Source: Escherichia coli (GTDB taxonomy: Bacteria; Pseudomonadota; Gammaproteobacteria; Enterobacterales; Enterobacteriaceae). Taken from it: a stretch of DNA of 64,000 bases. Under the pieces are notes generated by a model that did not search any database, was not told the origin of the DNA, and saw only the letters and a program-made list of their open reading frames with translations. This document shows, one piece after another, positions 2,597-19,395 of the stretch (its first letter is position 1; each line of letters opens with the position of its first letter). The DNA lies in NCBI RefSeq assembly GCF_003334315.1, contig NZ_QOWR01000009.1; one strand, 5' to 3'. Position numbers and translations under genes: made by a program.

Positions 2597-4630
2597 ATGA
2601 CTCAAGTCGCGAAGAAAATTCTGGTGACGTGCGCACTGCCGTACGCTAACGGCTCAATCCACCTCGGCCATATGCTGGAGCACATCCAGGCTGATGTCTG
2701 GGTCCGTTACCAGCGAATGCGCGGCCACGAGGTCAACTTCATCTGCGCCGACGATGCCCACGGTACACCGATCATGCTGAAAGCTCAGCAGCTTGGTATC
2801 ACCCCGGAGCAGATGATTGGCGAAATGAGTCAGGAGCATCAGACTGATTTCGCAGGCTTTAACATCAGCTATGACAACTATCACTCGACGCACAGCGAAG
2901 AGAACCGCCAGTTGTCAGAACTTATCTACTCTCGCCTGAAAGAGAACGGTTTTATTAAAAACCGCACCATCTCTCAGCTGTACGATCCGGAAAAAGGCAT
3001 GTTCCTGCCGGACCGTTTTGTGAAAGGCACCTGCCCGAAATGTAAATCCCCGGATCAATACGGCGATAACTGCGAAGTCTGCGGCGCGACCTACAGCCCG
3101 ACTGAATTGATCGAGCCGAAATCGGTGGTTTCTGGCGCTACGCCGGTAATGCGTGATTCTGAACACTTCTTCTTTGATCTGCCCTCTTTCAGCGAAATGT
3201 TGCAGGCATGGACCCGCAGCGGTGCGTTGCAGGAGCAGGTGGCAAATAAAATGCAGGAGTGGTTTGAATCCGGCCTGCAACAGTGGGATATCTCCCGCGA
3301 CGCGCCATACTTTGGTTTTGAAATTCCGAACGCGCCGGGCAAATATTTCTACGTCTGGCTGGACGCACCGATTGGCTACATGGGTTCTTTCAAGAATCTG
3401 TGCGACAAGCGCGGCGACAGCGTAAGCTTCGATGAATACTGGAAGAAAGACTCCACCGCCGAACTGTACCACTTCATCGGTAAAGATATCGTTTACTTCC
3501 ACAGCCTGTTCTGGCCTGCCATGCTGGAAGGCAGCAACTTCCGCAAGCCGACCAACCTGTTTGTTCATGGCTATGTGACGGTGAACGGCGCGAAGATGTC
3601 CAAGTCTCGCGGCACCTTTATTAAAGCCAGCACCTGGCTGAATCATTTTGACGCTGACAGCCTGCGTTACTACTACACTGCGAAACTCTCTTCGCGCATT
3701 GATGATATCGATCTCAACCTGGAGGATTTCGTTCAGCGCGTGAATGCCGATATCGTTAACAAAGTGGTTAACCTGGCCTCCCGTAACGCGGGCTTTATCA
3801 ACAAACGTTTTGACGGCGTGCTGGCAAACGAACTGGCTGACCCGCAGTTGTACAAAACCTTCACTGATGCCGCTGAAGTGATTGGTGAAGCGTGGGAAAG
3901 CCGTGAATTTGGTAAAGCTGTGCGCGAAATCATGGCGCTGGCTGATCTGGCTAACCGCTATGTCGATGAACAGGCTCCGTGGGTAGTCGCAAAACAGGAA
4001 GGTCGCGATGCTGACCTGCAGGCGATTTGCTCAATGGGCATCAACCTGTTCCGCGTGCTGATGACTTACCTGAAGCCGGTACTGCCGAAACTGACCGAGC
4101 GTGCAGAAGCCTTCCTCAATACGGAACTGACCTGGGATGGTATCCAGCAACCGCTGCTGGGCCACAAAGTGAATCCGTTCAAGGCGCTGTATAACCGCAT
4201 CGATATGAAACAGGTTGAAGCTCTGGTGGAAGCCTCTAAAGAAGAAGTGAAAGCAGCTGCCGCGCCAGTTACTGGCCCACTGGCAGATGATCCGATTCAG
4301 GAAACCATCACCTTTGACGACTTCGCCAAAGTTGACCTGCGCGTAGCGCTGATCGAAAACGCAGAGTTTGTTGAAGGTTCTGACAAACTGCTGCGCCTGA
4401 CACTGGATCTCGGCGGTGAAAAACGCAATGTCTTCTCCGGTATTCGTTCTGCCTACCCGGATCCGCAGGCACTGATTGGTCGTCACACCATTATGGTGGC
4501 TAACCTGGCACCACGTAAAATGCGCTTTGGAATCTCCGAAGGCATGGTGATGGCTGCCGGTCCAGGCGGGAAAGATATCTTCCTGCTAAGCCCGGATGCT
4601 GGTGCTAAACCGGGTCATCAGGTGAAATAA
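2597..4630 (+). CDS. metG: Methionyl-tRNA synthetase (677 aa)
   Basis: ORF 2588..4630 trimmed to [29 protein letters not shown] (HIGH-type motif HLGH), KMSKS motif present (AKMSKSRG). Confidence 0.97.
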
Positions 4631-4639
4631 TCCCCCTTC

Positions 4640-4670
4640 AAGGCGCTGCATCGACAGCGCCTTTTCTTTA
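4640..4670 (+). terminator. Intrinsic terminator after metG
   Basis: Hairpin aaggcgctg-catcga-cagcgcctt at 4640-4663 followed by ttttcttt. Confidence 0.65.
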
Positions 4671-4770
4671 TAAATTCCTAAAGTTGTTTTCTTGCGATTT
4701 TGTCTCTCTCTAACCCGCATAAATACTGGTAGCATCTGCATTCAACTGGATAAAATTACAGGGATGCAGA

Positions 4771-7700
4771 ATGAGACACTTTATCTATCAGGACGAAAAA
4801 TCACATAAATTCTGGGCGGTGGAGCAACAGGGAAACGAGTTGCATATCAGTTGGGGAAAAGTTGGCACCAAAGGGCAAAGTCAGATAAAAAGTTTTTCAG
4901 ATGCTGCGGCAGCGGAAAAAGCGGAACTTAAGCTGATTGCGGAGAAGGTGAAGAAGGGGTATGTGGAGCAAGCGAAGGATAATTCTTTGCAACCTTCCCA
5001 AACGGTAACGGGCTCTCTCAAGGTAGCGGACTTATCCACCATTATTCAGGAACAACCCTCTTTCGTAGCAGAAACCCGTGCGCCTGACAAAAATACAGAT
5101 GCTGTTTTACCGTGGCTGGCGAAAGATATTGCTGTCGTTTTTCCGCCCGAAGTTGTACACACCACGTTAAGTCATCGCCGCTTTCCCGGAGTTCCTGTTC
5201 AGCAAGCAGACAAATTGACCCAATTACGTCGCTTAGCCTGTAGTGTGTCGCAACGGGATAATAAAACAGCCACATTTGACTTCAGCGCCTGTTCTTTAGA
5301 ATGGCAAAACACCGTCGCCCAGGCGATCAGTCAGATCGACGGCCTGAAAACAACACAGTTACCATCACCAGTAATGGCTGTACTCACGGCACTTGAAATG
5401 AAATGCACAAGATATAAAGTGCGTGAGGATGTTATGGATCAGATCGTCCAGGAAGGCGGTCTGGAATATGCTACTGATGTAATAATACACCTTCAACAGA
5501 TTGATATTGAATGGGATTATGCGAATAATGTCATTATTATTCTGCCGTCTGGCATTGCACCTAGCTACTTGGAGCAATATTCCAGATTTGAATTACGCCT
5601 ACGTAAACATTTATCACTGACGGAAGAGTCTCTCTGGCAAAAATGTGCACAAAAACTTATTGCCGCAATTCCACATATTCCAGAATGGCGGCAACCATTA
5701 ATTGCTTTGTTATTACCCGAAAAACCAGAAATTGCACATGAAATTGCCCAGCGTCTACTGGGGCAAAAAAAATTACCCTCGCTTGAGTGGTTAAAAATAG
5801 TGGCGACTGATGAGCACATTCTTGCCTCATTAGAAAAATATCACGAACCATATGCCATTTTTGATGATTACTATTGTGGTGCGATATGGTCAGCCACCGT
5901 ATTACAGGAGCAAGGTGTTGCAGCCCTGCCCCGATTTGCTCCCTATGCCGCAAGTGACTACTGCGCCGATGTGTTGCGTCATATCAATCATCCGTTCGCA
6001 TTGACACTGCTTATACGTGTAGCCGGGCAAACTAAACGCTGTCACGATCGGATGACGAAAGCCATTGCTGCGTTCCCACATGCAGCAATGGCGGCACTGA
6101 CGGAACTTCTTGGGCAAAAAGAAGAGAACAGTTGGCGCATTATGCTAATGACAATGCTTATCTCACAACCAGCACTGGCAGAACAGGTCATTCCCTGGCT
6201 CTCGACACCCGCAGTTGCCGTACTGAAATCATGCCAGCAACAACTGACACAGCCCTCAAACCATGCCAGCGCCGATCTACTGCCAGCCGTAGTAGTCTCC
6301 CCTCCCTGGCTTTCGAAAAAGAAAAAATCGCCGATTCCGGTGCTGGATTTAGCGCCATTAGGCATTGAGCCAATCTGTTATCTGACAGAAGAAATCAGTA
6401 ATCAACTTTTGGCGAAATATATCTGGTATTCAAAACACATCACGGTTAGCCATGAAGAAAGTACTACCAACCTGTTGGCAAGGATGGGTTTTCAACGACG
6501 GATCGCTGGTACATATATTAAAGCTCCCGAAGCGGTAGTTGAGGCATGGCTAAATGAAGATTATTCAACCTTACTAAGTGAATTTAAGGTGTTTCATTCA
6601 CCTACCGGGCATTATTGGCAGTTGGGGATTTTGACAACATTGCCGCTGGAGAAAGCAGTAAAAGCATGGAATGCCCTTACCCTATCTCCACATACCGATA
6701 CCGAATACTCCATGTTACATTTTGGACTCAAAGGGTTACCTGGGTTAGTAAACTCACTTGCACGCTATCCACAAGAAGCCTTGCCCATCACGAATTACTT
6801 CGCAGCGAGTGAGCTGGCTCCTGCCGTCGCCCGTGCCTTCAACAAACTGAAAACGCTACGCGAAAACGCCCGTAGCTGGCTGTTGAAATACCCGGAACAT
6901 GCCCTTACCGGCCTGCTGCCTGCGGCGCTCGGCAAAGCCGGTGAAGCACAGGATAACGCCCGCGCTGCCTTGCGTATGCTTACCGAAAACGGTCATCAGC
7001 CATTACTGCAAGAAATCGCCCGACGTTATAACCAGCCGGAAGTAACCGATGCGGTGAACGCTCTGCTTGCGCTCGATCCCTTAGATAATCACCCGACAAA
7101 AATCCCCACTCTTCCGGCCTTTTATCAGCCATCGCTCTGGACGCGCCCGGTATTAAAAGCAAATGCCCAATCACTGCCAGATAGCGCCCTCCTCCACCTC
7201 GGTGAAATGCTCCGCTTCCCTCAGGAAGAGGCTCTGTATCCGGGATTATTGCAGGTGAAAGACGTCTGTTCCGCCGACTCACTGGCGGGATTTGCCTGGG
7301 ATCTGTTTACCGCCTGGCAGACCGCTGGCGCGCCGTCGAAAGAGAGTTGGGCGTTCACTGCGTTAGGCGTTCTCGGTAACGATGACACCGCCCGCAAACT
7401 GACGCCATTAATACGCGCCTGGCCTGGTGAATCCCAGCATAAACGCGCCACCGTTGGGTTGGATATTCTCGCTGCTATCGGTAGTGATATCGCCCTTATG
7501 CAGCTTAACGGCATCGCCCAGAAACTGAAATTCAAAGCATTACAGGAGCGGGCAAAAGAAAAAATTGCCGACATTGCCGAGAGCCGCGAACTCACGGTGG
7601 CGGAGCTTGAAGATCGGTTAGCACCGGATCTCGGTCTGGATGATAACGGTTCGCTGCTGCTGGATTTTGGCCCACGGCAGTTCACCGTCAGCTTTGATGA

Positions 7701-8565
7701 AACCTTAAAACCGTTTGTGCGTGATGTTTCCGGCAGCCGCCTGAAGGACCTGCCCAAACCGAACAAAAGCGATGATGAAACGCGGGCGAACGATGCGGTT
7801 AACCGCTACAAATTGCTGAAAAAAGATGCGCGTACCATCGCCGCCCAGCAGGTAGCAAGGCTGGAATCCGCCATGTGCCTGCGCCGCCGCTGGTCGCTGG
7901 AAAACTTCCAGCTCTTCCTGGTTGAGCATCCGCTGGTTCGTCACTTAACCCGCCGTCTGATTTGGGGCGTTTATAGCGCCGAAAACCAGCTACTGGCTTG
8001 CTTTCGCGTAGCAGAAGATAACAGCTCCAGCACCGCTGACGATGATCTTTTCACCCTGCCGGAAGGCGATATCTCTATCGGCACTCCTCACGTTCTGGAA
8101 ATATCACCAACGGATGCTGCCGCCTTTGGTCAGCTTTTTGCCGACTACGAACTGCTACCACCGTTCCGCCAGCTCGACCGTAACAGCTACGCCCTGACAG
8201 AAGCCGAGCGCAATGCCAGTGAACTGACCCGCTGGGCAGGCAGAAAATGCCCGAGTGGTCGGGTCATGGGGCTGGCGAATAAAGGCTGGATAAAGGGCGA
8301 ACCACAGGATGGAGGCTGGATCGGATGGATGATCAAACCTTTGGGTCGCTGGTCGTTAATCATGGAAATCGATGAAGGCTTTGCGGTAGGCATGTCGCCA
8401 GCCGAACTCAGCGCTGAGCAGCTCTTAAGCAAGCTGTGGCTATGGGAAGGCAAAGCAGAAAGATATGGCTGGGGGAGTAATTCAACACAGGAAGCGCAGT
8501 TCTCCGTAATCGATGCCATCACCGCCAGCGAGCTAATTAACGATATTGAAGCCCTGTTTGAATAA
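4771..8565 (+). CDS. yehH: Large MolR-like protein with N-terminal WGR domain (1264 aa), intact
   Basis: Single uninterrupted ORF; N-terminus MRHFIYQDEKSHKFWAVEQQGNELHISWGKVGTKGQ shows the W-G-K/R signature of WGR domains; remainder paralogous to downstream YehI. Confidence 0.85.
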   Translation: MRHFIYQDEKSHKFWAVEQQGNELHISWGKVGTKGQSQIKSFSDAAAAEKAELKLIAEKVKKGYVEQAKDNSLQPSQTVTGSLKVADLSTIIQEQPSFVAETRAPDKNTDAVLPWLAKDIAVVFPPEVVHTTLSHRRFPGVPVQQADKLTQLRRLACSVSQRDNKTATFDFSACSLEWQNTVAQAISQIDGLKTTQLPSPVMAVLTALEMKCTRYKVREDVMDQIVQEGGLEYATDVIIHLQQIDIEWDYANNVIIILPSGIAPSYLEQYSRFELRLRKHLSLTEESLWQKCAQKLIAAIPHIPEWRQPLIALLLPEKPEIAHEIAQRLLGQKKLPSLEWLKIVATDEHILASLEKYHEPYAIFDDYYCGAIWSATVLQEQGVAALPRFAPYAASDYCADVLRHINHPFALTLLIRVAGQTKRCHDRMTKAIAAFPHAAMAALTELLGQKEENSWRIMLMTMLISQPALAEQVIPWLSTPAVAVLKSCQQQLTQPSNHASADLLPAVVVSPPWLSKKKKSPIPVLDLAPLGIEPICYLTEEISNQLLAKYIWYSKHITVSHEESTTNLLARMGFQRRIAGTYIKAPEAVVEAWLNEDYSTLLSEFKVFHSPTGHYWQLGILTTLPLEKAVKAWNALTLSPHTDTEYSMLHFGLKGLPGLVNSLARYPQEALPITNYFAASELAPAVARAFNKLKTLRENARSWLLKYPEHALTGLLPAALGKAGEAQDNARAALRMLTENGHQPLLQEIARRYNQPEVTDAVNALLALDPLDNHPTKIPTLPAFYQPSLWTRPVLKANAQSLPDSALLHLGEMLRFPQEEALYPGLLQVKDVCSADSLAGFAWDLFTAWQTAGAPSKESWAFTALGVLGNDDTARKLTPLIRAWPGESQHKRATVGLDILAAIGSDIALMQLNGIAQKLKFKALQERAKEKIADIAESRELTVAELEDRLAPDLGLDDNGSLLLDFGPRQFTVSFDETLKPFVRDVSGSRLKDLPKPNKSDDETRANDAVNRYKLLKKDARTIAAQQVARLESAMCLRRRWSLENFQLFLVEHPLVRHLTRRLIWGVYSAENQLLACFRVAEDNSSSTADDDLFTLPEGDISIGTPHVLEISPTDAAAFGQLFADYELLPPFRQLDRNSYALTEAERNASELTRWAGRKCPSGRVMGLANKGWIKGEPQDGGWIGWMIKPLGRWSLIMEIDEGFAVGMSPAELSAEQLLSKLWLWEGKAERYGWGSNSTQEAQFSVIDAITASELINDIEALFE

Positions 8566-8574
8566 GGAAAGAGC

Positions 8575-11500
8575 ATGGACAAGGAATTACCGTGGCTGGC
8601 GGATAACGCCCAACTGGAACTGAAATATAAAAAAGGCAAAACGCCGCTCAGTCATCGTCGCTGGCCGGGCGAACCAGTGTCCGTTATCACTGGAAGTCTC
8701 ATCCAGACATTGGGTGATGAATTGCTACAAAAAGCTGAGAAGAAAAAAAACATTGTCTGGCGTTATGAGAATTTTTCACTGGAGTGGCAGTCCGCCATCA
8801 CGCAGGCCATCAACTTGATCGGCGAACACAAACCCTCAATCCCGGACCGGACAATGGCGGCGCTAGCCTGTATCGCGCAAAATGACAGCCAACAGTTGCT
8901 CGACGAAATCGTCCAACAAGAGGGGCTGGAATATGCGACTGAGGTGGTGATTGCACGCCAGTTTATTGCGCGGTGTTATGAGAGTGATCCTCTGGTAGTG
9001 ACATTGCAGTATCAGGACGAGGATTATGGCTATGGTTATCGCTCAGAAACCTATAACGAATTCGATCTCCGACTGCGTAAGCATCTCTCTCTGGCAGAGG
9101 AAAGCTGCTGGCAGCGTTGCGCCGACAAACTCATTGCCGCACTACCAGGAATAACCAAAGTTCGCCGCCCTTTTATTGCGCTGATCCTCCCGGAAAAACC
9201 AGAAATAGCCAATGAGTTGGTAGGCCTTGAATGCCCGCGAACTCATTTTCATTCTAAGGAGTGGTTAAAAGTTGTTGCTAATGACCCCACAGCGGTGAGA
9301 AAACTCGAACACTACTGGAGCCAGGATATATTTAGCGATCGAGAAGCCAGCTACATGTCGCATGAAAACCACTTCGGCTACGCGGCCTGCGCCGCCCTTT
9401 TGCGCGAACAAGGACTGGCAGCCATTCCGCGCCTCGCGATGTATGCCCATAAAGAAGATTGCGGCAGTCTGCTGGTACAAATTAACCATCCGCAAGTCAT
9501 CCGCACCTTGCTACTGGTGGCTGATAAAAACAAACCCAGCCTGCAACGTGTAGCTAAATACCATAAAAACTTCCCCCATGCGACGCTCGCCGCACTGGCA
9601 GAACTGCTGGCGTTAACAGAACCACCAGCCCGCCCTGGTTATCCAATCATCGAAGACAAAAAGCTGCCTGCACAGCAAAAAGCACGCGATGAATACTGGC
9701 GTACGCTGTTACAAACGCTGATGGCATCGCAGCCACAACTGGCAGCAGAAGTGATGCCGTGGTTAAGTACTCAACCCCAGTCAGTGCTGAAGAGTTATTT
9801 ATCGGCACCGCCCAAACCGGTTATTGATGGCACCGATAACAGCAATCTGCCAGAAATCCTCGTTTCACCACCGTGGCGTAGTAAGAAAAAAATGACAGCT
9901 CCACGTCTTGATTTGGCACCGCTCGAATTAACTCCGCAAGTTTACTGGCAACCAGGCGAACAAGAGAGGCTTGCCGCCACTGAGCCTGCCCGTTATTTCA
10001 GCACGGAATCTCTTGCGCAACGCATGGAACAAAAAAGTGGACGAGTTGTATTACAGGAACTGGGTTTTGGGGATGATGTATGGCTGTTTCTGAATTATAT
10101 ACTCCCCGGAAAACTGGATGCTGCACGCAATTCACTCTTTGTTCAGTGGCATTACTACCAGGGGCGGGTTGAAGAGATCCTGAATGGCTGGAACTCCCCG
10201 GAAGCACAATTAGCAGAACAGGCGCTCCGCAGCGGTCACATAGAAGCGTTAATTAACATATGGGAAAATGACAACTACTCACATTATCGTCCGGAAAAGA
10301 GTGTCTGGAACCTGTATTTATTGGCACAGTTGCCGCGTGAGATGGCTTTGACCTTCTGGCTGCGTATCAATGAGAAAAAGCATCTGTTCGCGGGTGAGGA
10401 CTATTTTCTCAGTATCCTCGGATTGGATGCGCTACCAGGTCTGCTGTTGGCTTTTTCACATCGTCCAAAAGAAACATTTCCGTTAATTTTAAATTTTGGC
10501 GCAACAGAACTGGCGCTGCCTGTTGCCCACGTCTGGCGACGTTTCGCGGCGCAGCGTGATCTGGCTCGCCAGTGGATTTTACAATGGCCGGAACATACGG
10601 CTAGTGCACTTATCCCTCTTGTCTTTACCAAACCCAGCGATAATAGCGAAGCCGCATTACTTGCCCTGCGTTTACTGTACGAACAGGGACATGGCGAATT
10701 GCTACAAACCGTGGCAAACCGCTGGCAGCGTACAGATGTATGGTCTGCCCTGGAGCAGTTGCTTAAACAGGGTCCAATGGACATTTACCCGGCACGCATT
10801 CCAAAAGCCCCTGATTTCTGGCATCCGCAAATGTGGTCCAGGCCGCGCCTTATCACTAATAATCAAACTGTTACCAATGACGCTCTGGAAATTATCGGCG
10901 AAATGCTGCGCTTTACCCAGGGGGGACGTTTTTATAGCGGGCTGGAACAACTGAAAACGTTCTGCCAGCCACAAACGCTGACAGCTTTTGCCTGGGATCT
11001 CTTCACTGCGTGGCAACAAGCTGGTGCCCCCGCAAAAGACAACTGGGCATTTCTGGCGTTAAGTCTCTTTGGTGACGAAAGCACGGCACGGGATCTGACG
11101 ACACAGATCCTCGCCTGGCCACAAGAAGGCAAATCTGCCCGTGCTGTCAGCGGCCTGAACATCCTTACCCTGATGAATAATGATATGGCGCTGATACAGC
11201 TGCATCATATATCGCAACGGGCTAAATCCCGCCCCTTACGTGATAACGCGGCGGAATTTCTTCAGGTGGTCGCAGAAAATCGCGGGCTAAGCCAGGAAGA
11301 GCTAGCGGACAGATTAGTCCCAACCCTGGGCCTTGATGATCCGCAGGCGTTGAGTTTTGATTTTGGTCCCCGGCAGTTTACCGTTCGCTTCGATGAAAAT
11401 CTCAACCCGGTTATCTTTGATCAGCAAAACGTTCGCCAGAAAAGCGTTCCCCGTTTGCGCGCCGATGACGATCAACTGAAAGCGCCCGAGGCACTGGCCC

Positions 11501-12207
11501 GACTAAAAGGGCTAAAAAAAGATGCTACTCAGGTGAGCAAAAACCTGCTCCCGCGTCTTGAAACGGCCCTACGTACCACCCGACGCTGGTCGCTGGCAGA
11601 TTTTCATTCTCTGTTTGTTAATCATCCCTTTACCCGTCTGGTTACCCAGCGATTAATATGGGGGGTTTATCCGGCAAATGAACCGCGTTGTTTACTCAAA
11701 GCCTTTCGTGTGGCCGCAGAGGGGGAGTTCTGCAATGCGCAAGATGAGCCAATTGACCTGCCTGCGGACGCTCTGATTGGCATTGCCCACCCGTTAGAAA
11801 TGACAGCAGAAATGCGCAGTGAATTTGCACAGCTTTTTGCCGATTACGAAATTATGCCGCCTTTTCGCCAGTTGTCGCGCCGCACGGTGCTGCTCACACC
11901 TGACGAGTCAACCAGTAACAGCCTGACTCGCTGGGAAGGTAAATCCGCTACCGTTGGGCAACTTATGGGAATGCGATACAAAGGCTGGGAGTCAGGCTAT
12001 GAGGACGCATTTGTCTATAACCTGGGTGAGTACCGGCTGGTCCTTAAGTTTTCACCCGGTTTTAACCACTACAATGTTGATAGCAAAGCGCTAATGAGCT
12101 TCCGTTCTCTTCGAGTGTACCGTGACAATAAATCCGTCACTTTTGCCGAACTTGATGTGTTTGATTTGAGTGAGGCGTTAAGCGCACCTGACGTCATTTT
12201 CCATTAA
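8575..12207 (+). CDS. yehI: Large uncharacterised protein YehI (1210 aa), paralogue of YehH lacking the WGR N-terminus
   Basis: ORF 8575..12207, 1210 aa; extensive colinear similarity with YehH (e.g. DLRLRKHLSLAEES..., SPPWRSKKK, FAWDLFTAWQQAGAP, FDFGPRQFTV, FAQLFADYEIMPPFRQL). Confidence 0.85.
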   Translation: MDKELPWLADNAQLELKYKKGKTPLSHRRWPGEPVSVITGSLIQTLGDELLQKAEKKKNIVWRYENFSLEWQSAITQAINLIGEHKPSIPDRTMAALACIAQNDSQQLLDEIVQQEGLEYATEVVIARQFIARCYESDPLVVTLQYQDEDYGYGYRSETYNEFDLRLRKHLSLAEESCWQRCADKLIAALPGITKVRRPFIALILPEKPEIANELVGLECPRTHFHSKEWLKVVANDPTAVRKLEHYWSQDIFSDREASYMSHENHFGYAACAALLREQGLAAIPRLAMYAHKEDCGSLLVQINHPQVIRTLLLVADKNKPSLQRVAKYHKNFPHATLAALAELLALTEPPARPGYPIIEDKKLPAQQKARDEYWRTLLQTLMASQPQLAAEVMPWLSTQPQSVLKSYLSAPPKPVIDGTDNSNLPEILVSPPWRSKKKMTAPRLDLAPLELTPQVYWQPGEQERLAATEPARYFSTESLAQRMEQKSGRVVLQELGFGDDVWLFLNYILPGKLDAARNSLFVQWHYYQGRVEEILNGWNSPEAQLAEQALRSGHIEALINIWENDNYSHYRPEKSVWNLYLLAQLPREMALTFWLRINEKKHLFAGEDYFLSILGLDALPGLLLAFSHRPKETFPLILNFGATELALPVAHVWRRFAAQRDLARQWILQWPEHTASALIPLVFTKPSDNSEAALLALRLLYEQGHGELLQTVANRWQRTDVWSALEQLLKQGPMDIYPARIPKAPDFWHPQMWSRPRLITNNQTVTNDALEIIGEMLRFTQGGRFYSGLEQLKTFCQPQTLTAFAWDLFTAWQQAGAPAKDNWAFLALSLFGDESTARDLTTQILAWPQEGKSARAVSGLNILTLMNNDMALIQLHHISQRAKSRPLRDNAAEFLQVVAENRGLSQEELADRLVPTLGLDDPQALSFDFGPRQFTVRFDENLNPVIFDQQNVRQKSVPRLRADDDQLKAPEALARLKGLKKDATQVSKNLLPRLETALRTTRRWSLADFHSLFVNHPFTRLVTQRLIWGVYPANEPRCLLKAFRVAAEGEFCNAQDEPIDLPADALIGIAHPLEMTAEMRSEFAQLFADYEIMPPFRQLSRRTVLLTPDESTSNSLTRWEGKSATVGQLMGMRYKGWESGYEDAFVYNLGEYRLVLKFSPGFNHYNVDSKALMSFRSLRVYRDNKSVTFAELDVFDLSEALSAPDVIFH

Positions 12208-12267
12208 AACACAGCGGGCAGTGATGCAACTGCCCGTTATCAACACGACTTACCAGCGGGGAAAGCG

Positions 12268-12585
12268 ATGATCGTGCAAAAAGAGCTGGTTGCTATTTAC
12301 GATTATGAGGTCCCTGTACCTGAAGATCCGTTTTCCTTCAGACTTGAGATCCATAAATGCTCTGAATTATTTACAGGTTCCGTCTATCGACTGGAGCGAT
12401 TCCGGCTACGTCCAACATTTCATCAACGTGATCGAGAAGATGCTGACCCGCTAATAAATGATGCGTTGATTTATATAAGAGATGAGTGTATTGATGAGCG
12501 GAAATTACGAGGTGAATCACCTGAAACTGTAATAGCAATTTTTAATCGTGAACTACAGAATATATTCAACCAAGAAATAGAATAA
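12268..12585 (+). CDS. yehK: Small uncharacterised protein YehK (105 aa)
   Basis: ORF 12268..12585 preceded by RBS-like gggaaagcg; AT-richer than flanking genes. Confidence 0.65.
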   Translation: MIVQKELVAIYDYEVPVPEDPFSFRLEIHKCSELFTGSVYRLERFRLRPTFHQRDREDADPLINDALIYIRDECIDERKLRGESPETVIAIFNRELQNIFNQEIE

Positions 12586-12662
12586 TATACTCTAAATAAT
12601 TCAAATTGGTCCGATCCGGCGCACCGTCCCAATGGCCTGGATTATAAATCTCATTATCTTAA

Positions 12663-12691
12663 TTGCAACGGGGTCCAGCCGTGGTTATAAT
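12663..12691 (+). promoter_or_regulatory. Near-consensus sigma70-type promoter (TTGCAA - 17 bp - TATAAT)
   Basis: -35 ttgcaa 12663-12668, 17-bp spacer, perfect -10 tataat 12686-12691. Confidence 0.4.
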
Positions 12692-12756
12692 TCGTTCGTT
12701 GGAACACGATGTTGCACAGGCTGTGGTGTTAGGCCTGAAAATAGTAAATAAAAGAA

Positions 12757-12781
12757 CCTGCCTCACCAGCAGGTTTTTTTA
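12757..12781 (+). terminator. Intrinsic terminator in yehK-yehL intergenic region
   Basis: Stem cctgc / gcagg with loop ctcacca (12757-12773) followed by 8 T (12774-12781). Confidence 0.5.
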
Positions 12782-12891
12782 TTTACTGTGATCTGCTTTC
12801 CAGATATTTTTCGCTCAAACAACTAATGCGCCAAACATTTATTGCGCGTAAAATATCGTTTATTTCATTAATACATTTCAGGGATGAATAT

Positions 12892-13979
12892 ATGTCACCG
12901 CAGAATAATCATCTGCAGCGTCCGCCTGCTGCTGTGTTATACGCCGATGAACTGGCAAAATTAAAACAAAATGATAACGCACCTTGCCCGCCCGGTTGGC
13001 AGTTAAGTTTGCCTGCGGCCCGTGCTTTTATCCTTGGCGACGAAGCGCAAAATATCAGCCGTAAAGTGGTGATTAGCCCCTCCGCTGTCGAACGTATGTT
13101 AGTCACTCTTGCTACCGGCCGCGGTTTGATGTTGGTGGGGGAACCGGGTACCGCAAAATCTCTTCTTTCTGAATTACTGGCAACCGCTATTAGCGGCGAT
13201 GCCGGGTTAACCATCCAGGGCGGGGCATCTACCACCGAAGATCAAATCAAGTATGGCTGGAACTACGCCCTGCTTATCAATCATGGTCCGTCAACGGAAG
13301 CGCTGGTCCCTGCCCCGCTTTATCAGGGAATGCGCGACGGCAAAATCGTCCGTTTCGAAGAGATAACGCGTACACCGCTGGAAGTGCAGGACTGTCTGTT
13401 AGGTATGCTTTCTGACAGGGTGATGACGGTGCCGGAACTCACTGGTGAAGCCAGTCAGCTCTATGCGCGAGAAGGCTTTAATATTATTGCCACTGCCAAT
13501 ACCCGCGATCGCGGCGTCAATGAAATGAGTGCTGCGCTAAAGCGTCGCTTCGATTTTGAAACGGTTTTTCCGATTATGGATTTCGCCCAGGAGTTGGAAC
13601 TGGTCGCCAGTGCTTCGGCGCGTTTGCTGGCCCATAGCGGTATTCCGCATAAAGTGCCTGACGCGGTACTGGAATTACTGGTCCGCACCTTCCGCGATCT
13701 GCGTGCCAACGGCGAAAAGAAAACGTCAATGGATACACTGACAGCGATTATGTCCACCGCTGAAGCCGTGAACGTGCCCATGCTGTGGGCGTCCGCGCCT
13801 GGTTTTTAGCGAATCGCGCGGGGGAGCCTGCCGACCTGGTGGAATGTATTGCCGGAACCATCGTCAAAGATAACGAAGAAGATCGCGCGCGTCTGCGCCG
13901 TTACTTCGAACAGCGTGTCGCCACACATAAAGAAGCTCACTGGCAGGCTTATTATCAAGCCCGCCACCGCCTGCCGTGA
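12892..13979 (+). pseudogene. yehL: MoxR-type AAA+ ATPase YehL, disrupted by apparent 1-nt deletion (frame A ends at TAG 13807-13809; remainder continues in -1 frame to 13979)
   Basis: ORF 12826..13809 trimmed to MSPQNNH at 12892; Walker A LVGEPGTAKS (~13138-13161). The -1 frame is open from 13764 to TGA 13977-13979; joined length equals 362 codons, matching my recollection of K-12 YehL. T5 run at 13803-13807 is the likely indel site. Confidence 0.6.
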
Positions 13980-13989
13980 GGAAAGATGC

Positions 13990-16269
13990 ATGAGCGAGCC
14001 GTTAATTGTCGGCATCCGGCATCATAGTCCGGCCTGCGCCCGGCTGGTGAAATCGTTAATCGAAAGCCAGCGGCCACGATACGTGTTGATTGAAGGCCCG
14101 GCTGATTTTAATGACCGGGTAGACGAACTGTTTTTAGCCCACCAGCTTCCGGTAGCTATTTACAGTTATTGCCAGTATCAGGACGGTGCAGCCCCCGGGC
14201 GTGGTGCCTGGACGCCATTTGCTGAATTTTCGCCGGAGTGGCAGGCGCTACAAGCCGCACGTCGCATTCAGGCACAAACTTACTTCATCGATTTGCCTTG
14301 CTGGGCGCAGAGTGAAGAAGAGGACGATTCGCCTGATACGCAAGATGAAAGCCAGGCCTTACTGCTGCGTGCCACCCGCATGGATAACAGCGATACCCTG
14401 TGGGATCACTTGTTCGAAGATGAAAGCCAGCAAACTGCATTACCCTCTGCGCTGGCGCACTATTTTGCCCAACTGCGGGGCGACGCCTCCGGCGATGCGC
14501 TCAATCGTCAGCGCGAAGCCTTTATGGCCCGCTGGATTGGATGGGCGATGCAGCAAAATAATGGCGACGTGTTAGTTGTCTGCGGTGGCTGGCACGCTCC
14601 GGCACTGGCAAAGATGTGGCGCGAATGCCCTCAGAAAATTAACAAGCCAGAATTGCCCTCGCTGGCAGATGCCGTTACAGGTTGTTATCTCACACCCTAC
14701 AGTGAAAAGCGCCTTGATGTGCTGGCAGGATACCTTTCAGGAATGCCTGCCCCGGTATGGCAAAACTGGTGCTGGCAGTGGGGCTTGCAGAAGGCCGGTG
14801 AACAACTGCTAAAAACTATCCTTACCCGTTTGCGCCAGCACAAATTGCCCGCTTCTACCGCGGATATGGCTGCCGCTCATCTGCATGCGATGGCGCTGGC
14901 ACAGTTGCGCGGTCATACACTACCGTTACGCACTGACTGGCTGGATGCCATAGCAGGCTCGCTGATTAAAGAAGCCCTGAACGCGCCGTTGCCGTGGAGC
15001 TATCGCGGCGTTATTCATCCCGATACCGATCCGATTCTGCTAACGTTGATAGACACATTAGCGGGTGACGGATTCGGTAAACTTGCCCCTTCTACGCCAC
15101 AACCGCCTCTGCCAAAAGATGTCACCTGCGAACTGGAACGTACCGCAATCTCCCTTCCGGCGGAGCTTACCTTAAATCGCTTTACCCCCGATGGGCTGGC
15201 GCAAAGTCAGGTGTTACATCGGCTGGCAATACTGGAGATCCCTGGGATTGTACGCCAGCAGGGAAGTACACTGACACTTGCAGGCAACGGTGAAGAACGC
15301 TGGAAATTAACCCGCCCGCTTAGCCAGCATGCGGCATTGATTGAGGCCGCCTGTTTTGGTGCCACACTCTAGGAAGCCGCACGCAATAAATTAGAAGCCG
15401 ATATGCTGGACGCGGGCGGAATCGGCAGTATCACCACATGTCTTAGCCAGGAGGCGTTAGCGGGTCTGGCGTCCTTCAGTCAACAATTACTGGAGCAACT
15501 CACACTATTAATCGCCCAGGAAAATCAATTTGCCGAAATGGGCCAGGCGCTGGAAGTGCTTTATGCCTTATGGCGGCTGGATGAAATTAGCGGTATGCAA
15601 GGCGCGCAGATATTACAAACGACGTTATGCGCGACTATCGATCGCACGCTGTGGCTGTGTGAATCTAACGGCAGACCGGATGAAAAGGAGTTTCACGCTC
15701 ACCTGCATAGCTGGCAAGCGCTTTGCCATATTCTGCGCGATCTACATAGCGGCGTTAATTTACCCGGCGTTTCTCTTTCTGCGGCGGTAGCCTTACTGGA
15801 GCGACGCAGTCAGGCAATTCATGCCCCGGCGCTGGATCGCGGCGCGGCTCTTGGCGCACTAATGCGTCTGGAACATCCCAACGCCAGTGCCGAAGCGGCG
15901 CTGACGATGCTGGCGCAGTTATCCCCGGCACAATCTGGTGAGGCGCTGCACGGTTTGCTGGCGCTGGCCCGCCATCAACTGGCCTGTCAGCCGGCATTTA
16001 TCGCCGGTTTCAGCAGTCATTTAAATCAACTGAGTGAAGCCGATTTTATTAACGCCCTGCCCGATTTACGCGCGGCGATGGCCTGGCTACCACCACGAGA
16101 ACGCGGGACGCTGGCGCATCAGGTGCTTGAGCATTATCAACTGGCGCAACTTCCCGTTTCGGCGCTGCAAATGCCGTTGCATTGTCCACCACAGGCCATT
16201 GCACATCATCAACAACTCGAACAGCAGGCACTGGCATCGCTGCAAAACTGGGGAGTTTTCCATGTCTGA
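13990..16269 (+). pseudogene. yehM: Large uncharacterised protein YehM with in-frame amber codon (TAG 15370-15372); two ORF halves 13990..15372 and 15373..16269 in the same frame
   Basis: ORFs 13849..15372 and 15403..16269 are in the same reading frame separated only by TAG; read-through length 759 codons equals my recollection of K-12 YehM. Start at MSEPLIVGIRHHSP (13990). Confidence 0.6.
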
Positions 16270-17398
16270 ACTGAACGATCTTCTGACCACCCGTGAGCTA
16301 CAACGCTGGCGATTAATTCTTGGCGAAGCGGCAGAAACGACGCTTTGTGGGCTGGATGACAACGCCCGGCAGATAGACCACGCGCTGGAGTGGCTGTATG
16401 GGCGCGATCCTGAACGGCTCCAGCGTGGTGAACGTTCCGGTGGATTAGGTGGCTCAAATCTCACCACCCCTGAGTGGATCAACAGTATTCACACGCTGTT
16501 TCCGCAGCAGGTGATTGAGCGGCTGGAAAGCGATGCCGTGCTGCGCTACGGCATTGAAGATGTGGTGACGAATCTCGACGTGCTGGAACGTATGCAGCCT
16601 TCTGAAAGCCTGCTACGCGCTGTTTTGCACACCAAACATCTGATGAACCCCGAAGTACTGGCTGCCGCCCGCCGGATAGTGTGCCAGGTTGTTGAAGAAA
16701 TTATGGCTCGACTGGCAAAGGAAGTTCGTCAGGCTTTTTCTGGTGTCCGCGATCGCCGTCGCCGTTCATTTATTCCACTGGCGCGAAACTTTGATTTCAA
16801 AAGTACTCTGCGCGCCAACCTGCAACACTGGCACCCGCAACACGGCAAGTTGTATATCGAATCCCCCCGCTTTAACAGCCGCATTAAACGCCAAAGCGAA
16901 CAATGGCAACTGGTCTTACTGGTTGATCAAAGCGGATCGATGGTCGATTCGGTGATCCACTCTGCGGTGATGGCGGCCTGTTTGTGGCAGTTACCCGGCA
17001 TTCGTACCCATCTGGTGGCGTTTGACACAAGCGTCGTTGATCTCACGGCAGACGTTGCCGATCCGGTAGAGTTATTAATGAAAGTACAGTTGGGCGGCGG
17101 GACCAATATCGCCAGTGCCGTGGAGTATGGTCGGCAACTTATTGAACAACCAGCGAAAAGCGTCATTATCCTCGTGAGCGATTTTTACGAAGGGGGTTCA
17201 TCATCATTACTGACGCATCAGGTGAAAAAGTGTGTCCAGAGCGGCATCAAAGTGCTGGGACTGGCAGCGCTCGATAGCACCGCAACACCTTGCTATGACC
17301 GCGATACGGCCCAGGCGCTGGTTAATGTCGGCGCACAAATAGCCGCCATGACGCCGGGCGAGCTGGCATCATGGCTTGCGGAGAATCTTCAGTCATGA
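16262..17398 (+). CDS. yehP: von Willebrand factor A (vWA) domain protein YehP (378 aa)
   Basis: ORF trimmed to MSELNDLLTTRELQRW at 16262 (ATG 8 nt upstream of the yehM stop); MIDAS-like motif DQSGS (~16925-16939). Confidence 0.88.
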   Translation: MSELNDLLTTRELQRWRLILGEAAETTLCGLDDNARQIDHALEWLYGRDPERLQRGERSGGLGGSNLTTPEWINSIHTLFPQQVIERLESDAVLRYGIEDVVTNLDVLERMQPSESLLRAVLHTKHLMNPEVLAAARRIVCQVVEEIMARLAKEVRQAFSGVRDRRRRSFIPLARNFDFKSTLRANLQHWHPQHGKLYIESPRFNSRIKRQSEQWQLVLLVDQSGSMVDSVIHSAVMAACLWQLPGIRTHLVAFDTSVVDLTADVADPVELLMKVQLGGGTNIASAVEYGRQLIEQPAKSVIILVSDFYEGGSSSLLTHQVKKCVQSGIKVLGLAALDSTATPCYDRDTAQALVNVGAQIAAMTPGELASWLAENLQS

Positions 17399-19395
17399 AT
17401 TCACTACGTCCGGAATTATTAGAACTGACACCGCAGGCCCTGACGGCGTTAAGCAATGCCGGTTTTGTTAAGCGCAGTCTTAAGGAACTGGAAAATGGCA
17501 ACGTCCCGGAGATCAGCCATGAGAACGACGCTTTAATCGCCACCTTCAGTGACGGTGTCCGTACCCAGCTGGCGAACGGCCAGGCACTGAAAGAGGCTCA
17601 GTGCAGTTGCGGGGCCAACGGTATGTGCCGTCATCGCGTGATGCTGGTGTTAAGTTATCAACGACTTTGTGCCACCACTCAGTCTACGGAAAAAGAAGAA
17701 GAGTGGGATCCGGCAATCTGGCTGGAAGAACTGGCTACCCTTCCCGATGCTACCCGCAAACGCGCACAGGCGCTGGTCGCTAAAGGCATCACCATTGAGT
17801 TGTTCTGTGCGCCGGGTGAAATTCCCTCTGCCCGCTTACCGATGAGCGATGTGCGTTTTTATTCCCGCAGCAGTATTCGTTTCGCCCGTTGTGATTGTAT
17901 TGAAGGCACACTTTGCGAACATGTCGTACTGGCGGTACAGGCCTTCGTCGAGGCCAAAGCGCAGCAAGCAGAATTTAACCATTTAATCTGGCAGATGCGC
18001 AGCGAACACGTCACATCATCTGACGATCCGTTTGCCAGCGAAGAAGGCAACGCGTGTCGTCAATATGTTCAGCAATTAAGCCAGACATTATGGCTTGGCG
18101 GCATCAGCCAGCCGCTCATCCATTACGAGGCAGCATTCAACCGCGCATTGCAGGCGGCAGAGACCTGCAACTGGCGCTGGGTGAGTGAATCGCTACGGCA
18201 ACTGCGCGCCAGCGTTGATGCCTTCCACGCCCGCGCCAGCCACTATAATGCCGGAGAATGCTTACATCAGCTTGCGGCATTAAACAGTCGATTAAATTGC
18301 GCACAAGAGATGGCCCGGCGCGACAGTATTGGTGAAGTTCCTCCTGTGCCGTGGCGCACGGTCGTTGGCTCTGGCATTGCCGGAGAAGCAAAGCTTGATC
18401 ATCTGCGGCTGGTGTCTTTAGGTATGCGTTGCTGGCAGGATATTGAGCATTATGGTTTACGCATCTGGTTTACCGATCCCGACACCGGCAGTATTTTGCA
18501 CCTTTCGCGCAGTTGGCCGCGAAGTGAACAGGAAAACTCACCGGCAGCTACGCGTCGGCTGTTTAGTTTTCAGGCTGGCGCACTGGCGGGCGGGCAAATT
18601 GTTTCACAAGCAGCAAAACGCAGTGCCGATGGCGAGCTGCTGTTAGCTACCCGCAACCGCTTAAGCAGCGTTGTGCCGCTGTCGCCTGATGCCTGGCAAA
18701 TGTTGAGCGCGCCGTTACGCCAGCCGGGCATTGTGGCTTTGCGGGAATATTTACGCCAGCGTCCCCCCGCCTGCATACGGCCTCTTAATCAGGTCGATAA
18801 CTTATTTATTCTGCCGGTCGCTGAGTGTATTTCGCTCGGTTGGGACAGCAGCCGCCAGACGCTGGATGCGCAGGTCATTAGCGGCGAAGGGGAAGATAAT
18901 GTGCTGACGTTATCATTACCAGCCTCAGCCAGCGCACCTTATGCCGTTGAACGCATGGCGGTGCTTTTGCAACAAACAGACGACCCCGTGTGTCTGGTTT
19001 CTGGCTTTGTCAGTTTTGTTGAAGGGCAATTGACACTGGAACCACGGGTGATGATGACAAAAACCCGTGCCTGGGCGCTGGACGCAGAAACTACGCCTGT
19101 GGCACCGCTACCTTCTGCCAGCGTTTTGCCTGTGCCGTCTACTGCTCATCAGTTGCTGATACGCTGCCAGGCGTTACTTATTCAACTGCTCCATAACGGC
19201 TGGCGCTATCAGGAACAGAGTGCTATTGGTCAGGCAGAGTTGCTGGCGAATGACCTCACCGCGGTGGGTTTTTATCGGCTGGCACATGTGTTGGGACAAT
19301 TTCGTAATACAGAAAGCGAGGCACGGGTAGAAGCAATGAATAACGGTGTTTTGCTTTGCGAACAATTATTCCCCATGCTTCAGCAACAAGGATGA
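17395..19395 (+). CDS. yehQ: SWIM zinc-finger protein YehQ
   Basis: ORF trimmed to MNSLRPELLEL at 17395 (ATGA overlap with yehP stop); two CxCx5CxH motifs: CSCGANGMCRH and CDCIEGTLCEH. Confidence 0.85.
   Translation: MNSLRPELLELTPQALTALSNAGFVKRSLKELENGNVPEISHENDALIATFSDGVRTQLANGQALKEAQCSCGANGMCRHRVMLVLSYQRLCATTQSTEKEEEWDPAIWLEELATLPDATRKRAQALVAKGITIELFCAPGEIPSARLPMSDVRFYSRSSIRFARCDCIEGTLCEHVVLAVQAFVEAKAQQAEFNHLIWQMRSEHVTSSDDPFASEEGNACRQYVQQLSQTLWLGGISQPLIHYEAAFNRALQAAETCNWRWVSESLRQLRASVDAFHARASHYNAGECLHQLAALNSRLNCAQEMARRDSIGEVPPVPWRTVVGSGIAGEAKLDHLRLVSLGMRCWQDIEHYGLRIWFTDPDTGSILHLSRSWPRSEQENSPAATRRLFSFQAGALAGGQIVSQAAKRSADGELLLATRNRLSSVVPLSPDAWQMLSAPLRQPGIVALREYLRQRPPACIRPLNQVDNLFILPVAECISLGWDSSRQTLDAQVISGEGEDNVLTLSLPASASAPYAVERMAVLLQQTDDPVCLVSGFVSFVEGQLTLEPRVMMTKTRAWALDAETTPVAPLPSASVLPVPSTAHQLLIRCQALLIQLLHNGWRYQEQSAIGQAELLANDLTAVGFYRLAHVLGQFRNTESEARVEAMNNGVLLCEQLFPMLQQQG

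Follow-up and report, generated by a model that had tools for sequence, protein, structure and literature searches.

The stretch analyzed here, a 64-kb piece of DNA from Escherichia coli (contig NZ_QOWR01000009.1; hereafter, the window), contains a locus with the gene order metG–yehH(molR)–yehI–yehK–yehL–yehM–yehP–yehQ. The giant paralogous proteins YehH and YehI belong to a five-component cluster conserved in Proteobacteria, Actinomycetota, and Bacillota, the other four components being YehL (MoxR AAA+ ATPase), YehM (DUF5682), YehP (VWA, with a metal ion-dependent adhesion site, MIDAS), and YehQ (SWIM). Tentatively, and with somewhat less than even confidence, we interpret YehH and YehI as damage-induced, nucleic-acid-tethered adaptor or sensor subunits of an ATP-dependent MoxR–VWA remodeller, in which the giants would be the interchangeable, variable subunits. 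The genes and the parts of YehH are located in the window as follows.

4771–8565, + strand: yehH (molR), WGR, alpha-solenoid, and DUF4132, 1264 aa (open reading frame [ORF], BLASTP, Pfam)
4786–4977, + strand: WGR domain of YehH, residues 6–69 (PF05406, E = 5.3e-18)
5098–6870, + strand: hypervariable N-terminal solenoid of YehH, approximately residues 110–700, with low G+C (0.45–0.50)
6871–8562, + strand: conserved C-terminal module of YehH, a helical part and an alpha/beta domain (Pfam DUF4132 at 7732–8289)
8575–12207, + strand: yehI, the paralogue without WGR, 1210 aa (Pfam DUF4132 at 11434–11988)
12268–12585, + strand: yehK, 105 aa, low G+C, an orphan (ORF)
12892–13809, + strand: yehL, MoxR AAA+ with AAA_5 in the precomputed Pfam annotation of identical loci, shortened from 362 to 305 codons
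13990–16269, + strand: yehM, DUF5682, with an in-frame TAG at 15370–15372 (precomputed Pfam annotation of identical loci)
16262–17398, + strand: yehP, VWA_CoxE/VWA_2 in the precomputed Pfam annotation of identical loci; its MIDAS motif is complete
17395–19395, + strand: yehQ, weak SWIM zinc-finger match (Pfam, E = 0.0013), uninterrupted here

The ORF listing gives yehH, yehI, and yehK, all on the + strand, exactly where the original prediction had put them; yehI starts 9 nt past the yehH stop codon, and yehH, a pseudogene in K-12, is uninterrupted in the window. The window is chromosomal, positions 4500–13000 being 100% identical to strain 2017.03.02CC and 99.8% identical to K-12 by megablast. 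The locus is fixed between metG and yehR and has a match in 5426/5426 complete E. coli genomes.

The BLASTP alignment of YehH with YehI (676 bits, E = 0) contains 441 identities in 1184 columns (37%), in agreement with the original prediction that the two giant ORFs are paralogous over most of their length. All five shared blocks quoted there (LRLRKHLSL.EES.WQ.CA.KLIAA, SPPW.SKKK, FAWDLFTAWQ.AGAP, FDFGPRQFTV, and LFADYE..PPFRQL) are visible in the alignment, and the start of YehI, placed at about residue 110 of YehH, indeed falls there, YehI residue 2 being paired with YehH residue 110. The WGR domain is likewise limited to the first ORF: in the Pfam profile search, YehH matches PF05406 at model positions 9–77 of 79 (65.3 bits), and YehI has no PF05406 match. 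The YehH WGR also matches the WGR of Protein Data Bank (PDB) entry 2ra8 (E = 2.4e-17, residues 2–70). DUF4132 (PF13569) is present as a full-length profile match at residues 988–1173 of YehH (E = 9.7e-50), and is the sole Pfam match in YehI (E = 4.7e-47). The AlphaFold2 model of YehI residues 11–1210 (87-sequence alignment; pLDDT 89.7, pTM 0.83) consists of helical repeats, that is, an alpha-solenoid, up to approximately residue 905, followed by a distinctive C-terminal alpha/beta domain. From N- to C-terminus, a giant carries the WGR head (which YehI has lost), an extended alpha-solenoid with an N-terminal half that varies among paralogues and among strains, and a conserved module of ~600 residues with the DUF4132 alpha/beta domain at its end.

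Structure searches with the YehI model reveal no enzyme or catalytic fold, and the PARP ADP-ribosyltransferase catalytic domain is absent from the YehH Pfam scan and structure searches. Pfam and structure searches of YehH, YehI, YehM, and YehQ reveal neither effector nor enzyme domains (nuclease, TIR, protease, pore); therefore, the “sensing/effector arrangement” suggested originally is not supported and stands as unproven. The PDB sequence search yields only the 2ra8 WGR for YehH, and nothing for the DUF4132 profile, YehM, YehQ, or YehK; in NCBIfam, the matches are to the WGR part of a Leptospira model and, weakly and far below the cut-off, to AAA and VWA models. Matches of YehI, YehH, and YehK to PHROG families (phrog_20839, phrog_36602, phrog_28101, and phrog_36295; up to 1707 bits) were rejected as evidence of phage origin, since a tblastn search of 50,697 phage records gives no match; these families are probably chromosomal genes swept into prophage prediction.

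A phmmer scan of 1.84 billion representatives, with the family counted at 50% clustering, yields 5722 family representatives (2200 at E ≤ 1e-30), most of them 1100–1300 aa long; the part common to the family corresponds to YehI residues ~540–1140. Column conservation in the family alignment is 0.12–0.43 up to YehI residue ~610 and 0.45–0.73 from residue 611 onward, with a peak at 811–960. An acidic loop (LP...DD) at YehI residues ~958–966 is invariant and is a candidate ligand of the MIDAS. Within all arrays, the WGR head and the 65–80% region of the protein are the most conserved, and the 10–50% region is the most divergent. The family consensus from the 87-sequence alignment starts with WGR, which is present in 86/104 full-length copies; the WGR-less copies are essentially confined to arrays, alongside WGR-bearing ones. 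YehI has lost its WGR, since a YehI-like protein that bears one exists in Intestinirhabdus (P0114). Hence, a sensor with a WGR-less paralogue is not the ancestral design: the norm is a WGR protein in one to many tandem copies, and the WGR-less state is secondary.

Two unusual members of the family are seen in single contigs. A metagenome contig (L079, 6883–12213) encodes a 1776-aa member with a histidine kinase (HisKA/HATPase_c) fused N-terminally to WGR–DUF4132, with a response regulator gene upstream and a MoxR gene downstream. In an unrelated contig (L080, 9103–15022), a gene of an ApbC/Mrp-like ParA-family ATPase lies directly upstream of a 1673-aa DUF4132 gene; in E. coli, apbC (1356–2495 in the window) is two genes upstream of yehH, and this parallel may be a coincidence.

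The association of the giants with the ATPase module was assessed by a scan of one genome per species, which produced 73 loci. Enterobacterales, Burkholderiales, and Xanthomonadales are represented, along with single contigs of delta-proteobacterial, Holophagales, and other origin; the six-frame ORFs of all these loci were searched with E. coli YehL, YehM, YehP, YehQ, and YehK. Beside the DUF4132 gene(s), YehL is found in 52/73 loci, YehM in 50/73, YehP in 49/73, and YehQ in 48/73, the YehL matches being at E ~1e-170 even in Burkholderiales. The loci with no module are cut contigs, interiors of long Massilia arrays, and extra solo Massilia copies. In the annotated records, the order is DUF4132–AAA–DUF5682–VWA–(YehQ-like) in Streptomyces, AAA–DUF5682–DUF4132–VWA–SWIM in Agrobacterium vitis, and DUF4132–AAA–DUF5682–VWA–SWIM in Bacillus mycoides, each with 4-nt overlaps; that is, the cluster is conserved across three phyla with a shuffled gene order and often overlapping stop and start codons. 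Beyond within-genus synteny, no further conserved neighbor, such as a possible effector, is seen at the 73 loci. As the same five genes recur and no other neighbor does, they constitute one self-contained five-component system. The functional link between the giants and the ATPase module, proposed originally from one locus, is thus supported in three phyla, much more strongly than could be known from the letters, and the co-occurrence of yehHI with yehLMPQ, suggested there as a check, is seen as adjacency of the module to DUF4132 genes in 52 of the 73 loci. YehK, listed originally with the giants, is not a component: it occurs in 3/73 loci, all from Escherichia, and is frameshifted in some strains, including the E. 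coli strains with three giant copies (L004, L005); its 74 relatives among 5.8 billion clusters all come from Escherichia/Shigella, many of them shortened.

The motifs of the ATPase module are retained throughout. The Walker A (GEPGTAKS), Walker B-like (VRFEE), sensor 1 (ATAN), and arginine pair (KRRF) motifs of YehL are at least 90% conserved in 52 sequences, and the MIDAS of YehP (DQSGS, GGGT, SDF) is complete across 49 sequences. The nearest solved relatives of YehL are midasin AAA domains (E = 7e-10), and, among the MoxR ATPases, YehL serves as type member of the subfamily named after it (“YehL subfamily”, PMC3893208). As in RavA–ViaA, NorQ–NorD, CbbQ–CbbO, and CoxD–CoxE, an AAA_5 MoxR gene stands in an operon-like arrangement beside a VWA gene with an intact MIDAS. 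Unlike these pairs, the yeh cluster adds DUF5682, a SWIM protein, and one to many WGR–solenoid–DUF4132 giants; no enzyme client is encoded nearby, and the giant is polymorphic and variable in copy number.

By the same analogy, the giants might be clients rather than subunits, with YehLMPQ as a dedicated chaperone that would fold, assemble, or load a cofactor into them, the activity residing in the giants themselves. This would fit the strict linkage of a single module to one giant or to many, the match of YehP to VWA_CoxE, the family of a maturation factor, and the description of characterized MoxR proteins as maturation factors for specific complexes (PMC3893208). However, the giants have no cofactor-binding or catalytic fold, the YehI model is confident in the absence of partners, and the most conserved surface is that of the helical and alpha/beta module, which is of an interaction type; we consider this explanation improbable.

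The giants vary strongly both in sequence and in number. When YehH is compared with the orthologue at the corresponding position in E. coli R2, the final ~560 residues are 94–98% identical, and residues 100–700 only 38–80%. The proportion of synonymous differences (pS) between the window and R2 yehH is 0.47–0.86, near saturation, in the first 700 codons and sharply falls to 0.11–0.31 after them; for the neighboring gene metG, pS in the same comparison is 0.175. The ratio of nonsynonymous to synonymous rates (dN/dS) is below 0.35 in every 100-codon window, being 0.05–0.30 where dS can be estimated and 0.14–0.30 in the variable region of yehH, so that demonstrable recent positive selection on the solenoid was rejected. 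The near-saturated pS together with low dN/dS therefore indicates old allele classes joined by recombination. The variable region of the window yehH is found at ≥80% coverage in 3387/5426 complete E. coli genomes.

A third giant gene is located upstream in 1629 of the 5426 complete genomes (~30%); in E. coli AGR6128 (L004) and R2 (L005), the three tandem giants are of 1266, 1253, and 1210 aa. An E. coli protein of 1246 aa (P0118) is a chimera: it follows YehH for its first ~840 residues and switches to the C-terminal part of YehI at the conserved FAWDLFTAWQ block, which points to unequal crossover between the tandem paralogues. The longest arrays are those of Massilia spp. (L017, L029, L046, L058, L061, L069), in which five to at least seven tandem giants, spanning more than 20 kb, precede a single yehLMPQ-like module. 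The Massilia genomes with arrays also carry solo giant copies elsewhere.

The system is also frequently broken. In the window, relative to L001–L003, one G is lost in yehL between 13775 and 13776 (GTGGCC to GTGCC), producing a stop codon at 13807–13809 and removing 57 conserved C-terminal residues; yehM has TAG at 15370–15372, where L002 has CAG, this TAG being common to the draft assemblies L001 and L003. Hence, of the original description of the giants and yehK as lying immediately upstream of the MoxR module, the gene order holds, but a 306-nt spacer with an independent small RNA (sRNA) gene intervenes between yehK and yehL, and in this window the module itself is damaged. Exact 61-mers with the yehL deletion or the yehM TAG occur in 0/5426 complete E. 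coli genomes. Either the module is dead in the strain of the window, or the yehL deletion is a sequencing error. In K-12 MG1655 (L086), molR (7772–11567) has a frameshift and an internal stop codon, and yehQ (20398–22398) an internal stop codon. Insertions of IS1, IS421, and the resistance transposon TnMB1860 (blaCTX-M-15) are found within DUF4132 genes in some E. coli lineages (genomes H15 and H21; ST131 sublineage L1a, PMC9334617). Different E. coli lineages broke different components of the same system.

This variability and decay might indicate SOS-triggered surveillance or defence against phages and mobile elements, in which the solenoids would form a sensor repertoire and MoxR–VWA would be a nucleoside triphosphate (NTP)-dependent switch or executor. 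We regard this as possible but rather unlikely. Deep divergence of alleles into classes in a single species, with recombination breakpoints that are sharp; two or three copies in E. coli and five to at least seven in Massilia; the chimera P0118; frequent pseudogenes and insertions (e.g., those in PMC9334617); and the remnant of a type I toxin–antitoxin system (Orz) within the locus all agree with defence, as does the fact that SOS doubles as a prophage-induction signal. The vWA–MoxR–VMAP systems, described as conflict systems (PMC10910872), similarly combine MoxR and vWA with a third large variable protein, and a logic of an NTPase-controlled sensor is possible in both; unlike them, YehH, YehI, YehM, and YehQ have no VMAP or effector-associated Pfam domains, and the third protein is WGR–solenoid–DUF4132. 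Moreover, PADLOC-DB 2.0 gives zero matches for the nine proteins from YehH to YehR, the domain searches show no nuclease, TIR, protease, or pore, the chromosomal site between metG and yehR is fixed and the locus has a match in all 5426 complete genomes, and dN/dS is low in every window. Copies are rare on plasmids (30/72,556 records) and absent from the 50,697 phage records, and the neighbors elsewhere are ordinary metabolic genes, with no conserved defence neighbor; however, copies on Rhodococcus plasmids adjoin RES–Xre and Wadjet genes. These plasmid copies are solo or disrupted DUF4132 genes without the module, in defence-island-like settings: beside a RES-domain toxin pair (L085) and beside a Wadjet JetABCD-like cluster and a GIY-YIG nuclease (L089).

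The evidence for damage regulation of the giants in the window is a site directly upstream of yehH.

4744–4763, no strand assigned: LexA (SOS) box AACTGGATAAAATTACAGGG, ending 7 nt before the yehH ATG

Among the CTG-N10-CAG 20-mers of the 64-kb window, AACTGGATAAAATTACAGGG ranks first, with 13/20 matches to TACTGTATATATATACAGTA and 9/10 A/T in the spacer. The 20-mer before the first giant gene of strain L005, which has three copies, is identical, and E. whittamii and another Escherichia species (L006, L008), as well as K. oxytoca (L009), retain the box. The molR gene is among the LexA genes with a known SOS box (PMC6590174, Table 1) and in the RegulonDB SOS listing (via PMC4576408); together with the box, these lists suggest that yehH is induced after damage in a LexA-dependent manner. 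Its promoter is also activated by BglJ–RcsB and not repressed by H-NS (PMC3950696). Another recurrent upstream candidate, CTGGGAAGTGGAGCAG, was rejected, as it is coding sequence (FWEVEQ of the WGR domain) and not a LexA box.

Sites or candidate sites of local damage regulators appear at related genes in distant lineages. In Deinococcus radiodurans, DRA0166 (DUF4132) and DR2173 (WGR) have DdrO sites and show an IrrE-dependent rise after mitomycin C (PMC8533742); as is suggested for YehH, these domains are induced through the local damage regulator, here the DdrO/IrrE radiation–desiccation regulon, although, unlike in YehH, each of the two domains has its own protein. In Streptomyces, the sole TGTCRG-N10-TANNNT match in 19.4 kb lies on the correct strand, 36 nt before the start codon of the operon, with a chance expectation of 0.046; the PafBC consensus is tGTCgg(N10)tA(N3)T (PMC8635444). 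No exact match to the Cheo box is seen at the Bacillus, Streptomyces, and Rhodococcus loci, and no alphaproteobacterial GAAC-N7-GAAC at the Agrobacterium locus. On the Bacillus mycoides plasmid (L084, ~6705–6720), GAAACGTATGTTCG differs from the Cheo (LexA/DinR) box at a single position and is next to a -35/-10-like pair, with the DUF4132 operon starting ~150 nt downstream; on its own, such a site has approximately a 1-in-10 probability of arising by chance.

Historically, YehH has been annotated as MolR, a regulator of molybdate metabolism. VWA_CoxE relatives act on a molybdenum enzyme, which counts in favor of this annotation. The name and the database description trace to a 1990 genetic study, going by its citation in PMC4245954 and PMC3950696. 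On the other hand, YehH has no DNA-binding or regulator domain (only WGR and DUF4132 in Pfam), its modelled architecture is a solenoid scaffold, and molR is a pseudogene in K-12, the background strain of classical genetics; moreover, no molybdenum gene occurs in the conserved neighborhood of the 73 loci, and the Deinococcus molybdenum genes did not co-vary with the WGR and DUF4132 genes (PMC8533742). The MolR function is, hence, very improbable. The synthetic growth defect of ΔmolR1 ΔlepA (PMC4245954) was not used as evidence, since molR is a pseudogene in K-12 and adjoins metG.

If YehH and YehI are indeed adaptor or sensor subunits of a MoxR–VWA remodeller, the system might operate in the following way. 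DNA damage would lift LexA off the box before yehH, leading to expression of yehH–yehI; the WGR head, perhaps aided by the SWIM protein, would put the solenoid on nucleic acid or on a nucleoprotein complex, with the partner selected by the variable solenoid; and the conserved C-terminal module would dock on the YehP MIDAS and the YehL ring, resulting in ATP-driven remodelling or extraction of the bound complex. Nucleic-acid binding by the WGR, docking of DUF4132 on the module, and the remodelling output are proposed here by analogy with the PARP WGR, the MoxR–VWA pairs, and midasin.

The W-G-K/R-V-G motif of PARP1–3, eukaryotic DNA-break sensors that bind DNA ends or nicks, is present in YehH as SWGKVG; unlike PARP1–3, YehH has no PARP catalytic, zinc-finger, or BRCT domains, and its WGR heads a solenoid scaffold. 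A WGR head followed by a repeat scaffold is also seen in Bacteroides fragilis Q64V53 (PDB 2ra8) and Leptospira LIC_11051 and LIC_12901, although the repeats there are LRR and those of YehH form an alpha-solenoid, and most of those proteins have no DUF4132; LIC_12901 does have it (PMC11674859). Midasin/Rea1 likewise unites an AAA_5 ATPase and a MIDAS domain and acts alongside HEAT-type scaffolds; however, it is one eukaryotic giant, while in the bacterial yeh system these parts are separate proteins, and the relation is only at the level of domain families.

Several observations weigh against such a remodeller. The literature found contains no experimental phenotype for any yeh gene. Bacterial WGR domains are not known to bind nucleic acid. 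The deep allelic polymorphism and tandem arrays suit a recognition repertoire better than a repair factor, and the frequent breakage of the system in K-12, in the window, and in strains with IS or transposon insertions argues against an important housekeeping repair role. As to regulation, no LexA-like box for yehLMPQ is found in the window, and yehLMPQ sits behind a terminator; thus, yehHI and yehLMPQ are not obviously co-induced. No LexA-type box is seen upstream of the operon in the Erwinia, Serratia, and betaproteobacterial loci, and no PafBC-type motif at the Nonomuraea, Embleya, and Rhodococcus loci. As damage-type sites are present in some lineages and not in others, damage control is recurrent and independent, but not universal.

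Another view, which we consider unlikely, is that the yeh cluster represents an unnamed, widespread surveillance system wired to the damage response, immune-like but without a classical toxic effector. Here, a polymorphic set of solenoid sensors headed by WGR would be turned on through LexA, DdrO, and PafBC, and these sensors would pass foreign or damaged nucleoprotein complexes to the MoxR–VWA–SWIM–DUF5682 motor for ATP-driven disassembly.

The genes, their domains, the name of the MoxR subfamily, and the SOS membership of molR are already on record; the literature found on DUF4132 and the other components contains no description of the five-component cluster or its conservation across phyla, of the solenoid architecture, of the polymorphic repertoire of N-terminal parts, or of the repeated capture by different damage regulators. 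The yehH and yehI genes are among the largest uncharacterized genes of E. coli, and one of them has been on the SOS list for 25 years with no function, under the misleading name of a “molybdate regulator”. Studies in K-12 would see nothing, since both molR and yehQ are pseudogenes there. They now form a testable system: a five-component MoxR–VWA machine with polymorphic solenoids that, in distant phyla, is linked to their own DNA-damage regulators.

Two further elements are located in the intergenic regions of the locus.

12705–12780, + strand: OrzO-P-type antitoxin sRNA with a terminator hairpin (RF02083, 99.9 bits; gathering score, 60)
4640–4663, + strand: metG terminator-like hairpin, with a 9-bp stem, six G-C pairs, and then a T-rich tail

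The Orz sRNA is preceded by a promoter-like site at 12663–12691 (sigma-70-like TTGCAA-17-TATAAT), the whole element spanning 12663–12785. The 306-nt yehK–yehL spacer contains no 29-aa Zor toxin ORF, and Orz here is an orphan antitoxin rather than part of a zor–orz locus; such loci were reported at the yehK–yehL site in O157 and stated to be absent from MG1655 (PMC2887945). The hairpin at 4640–4663 sets metG apart from the promoter region of yehH.

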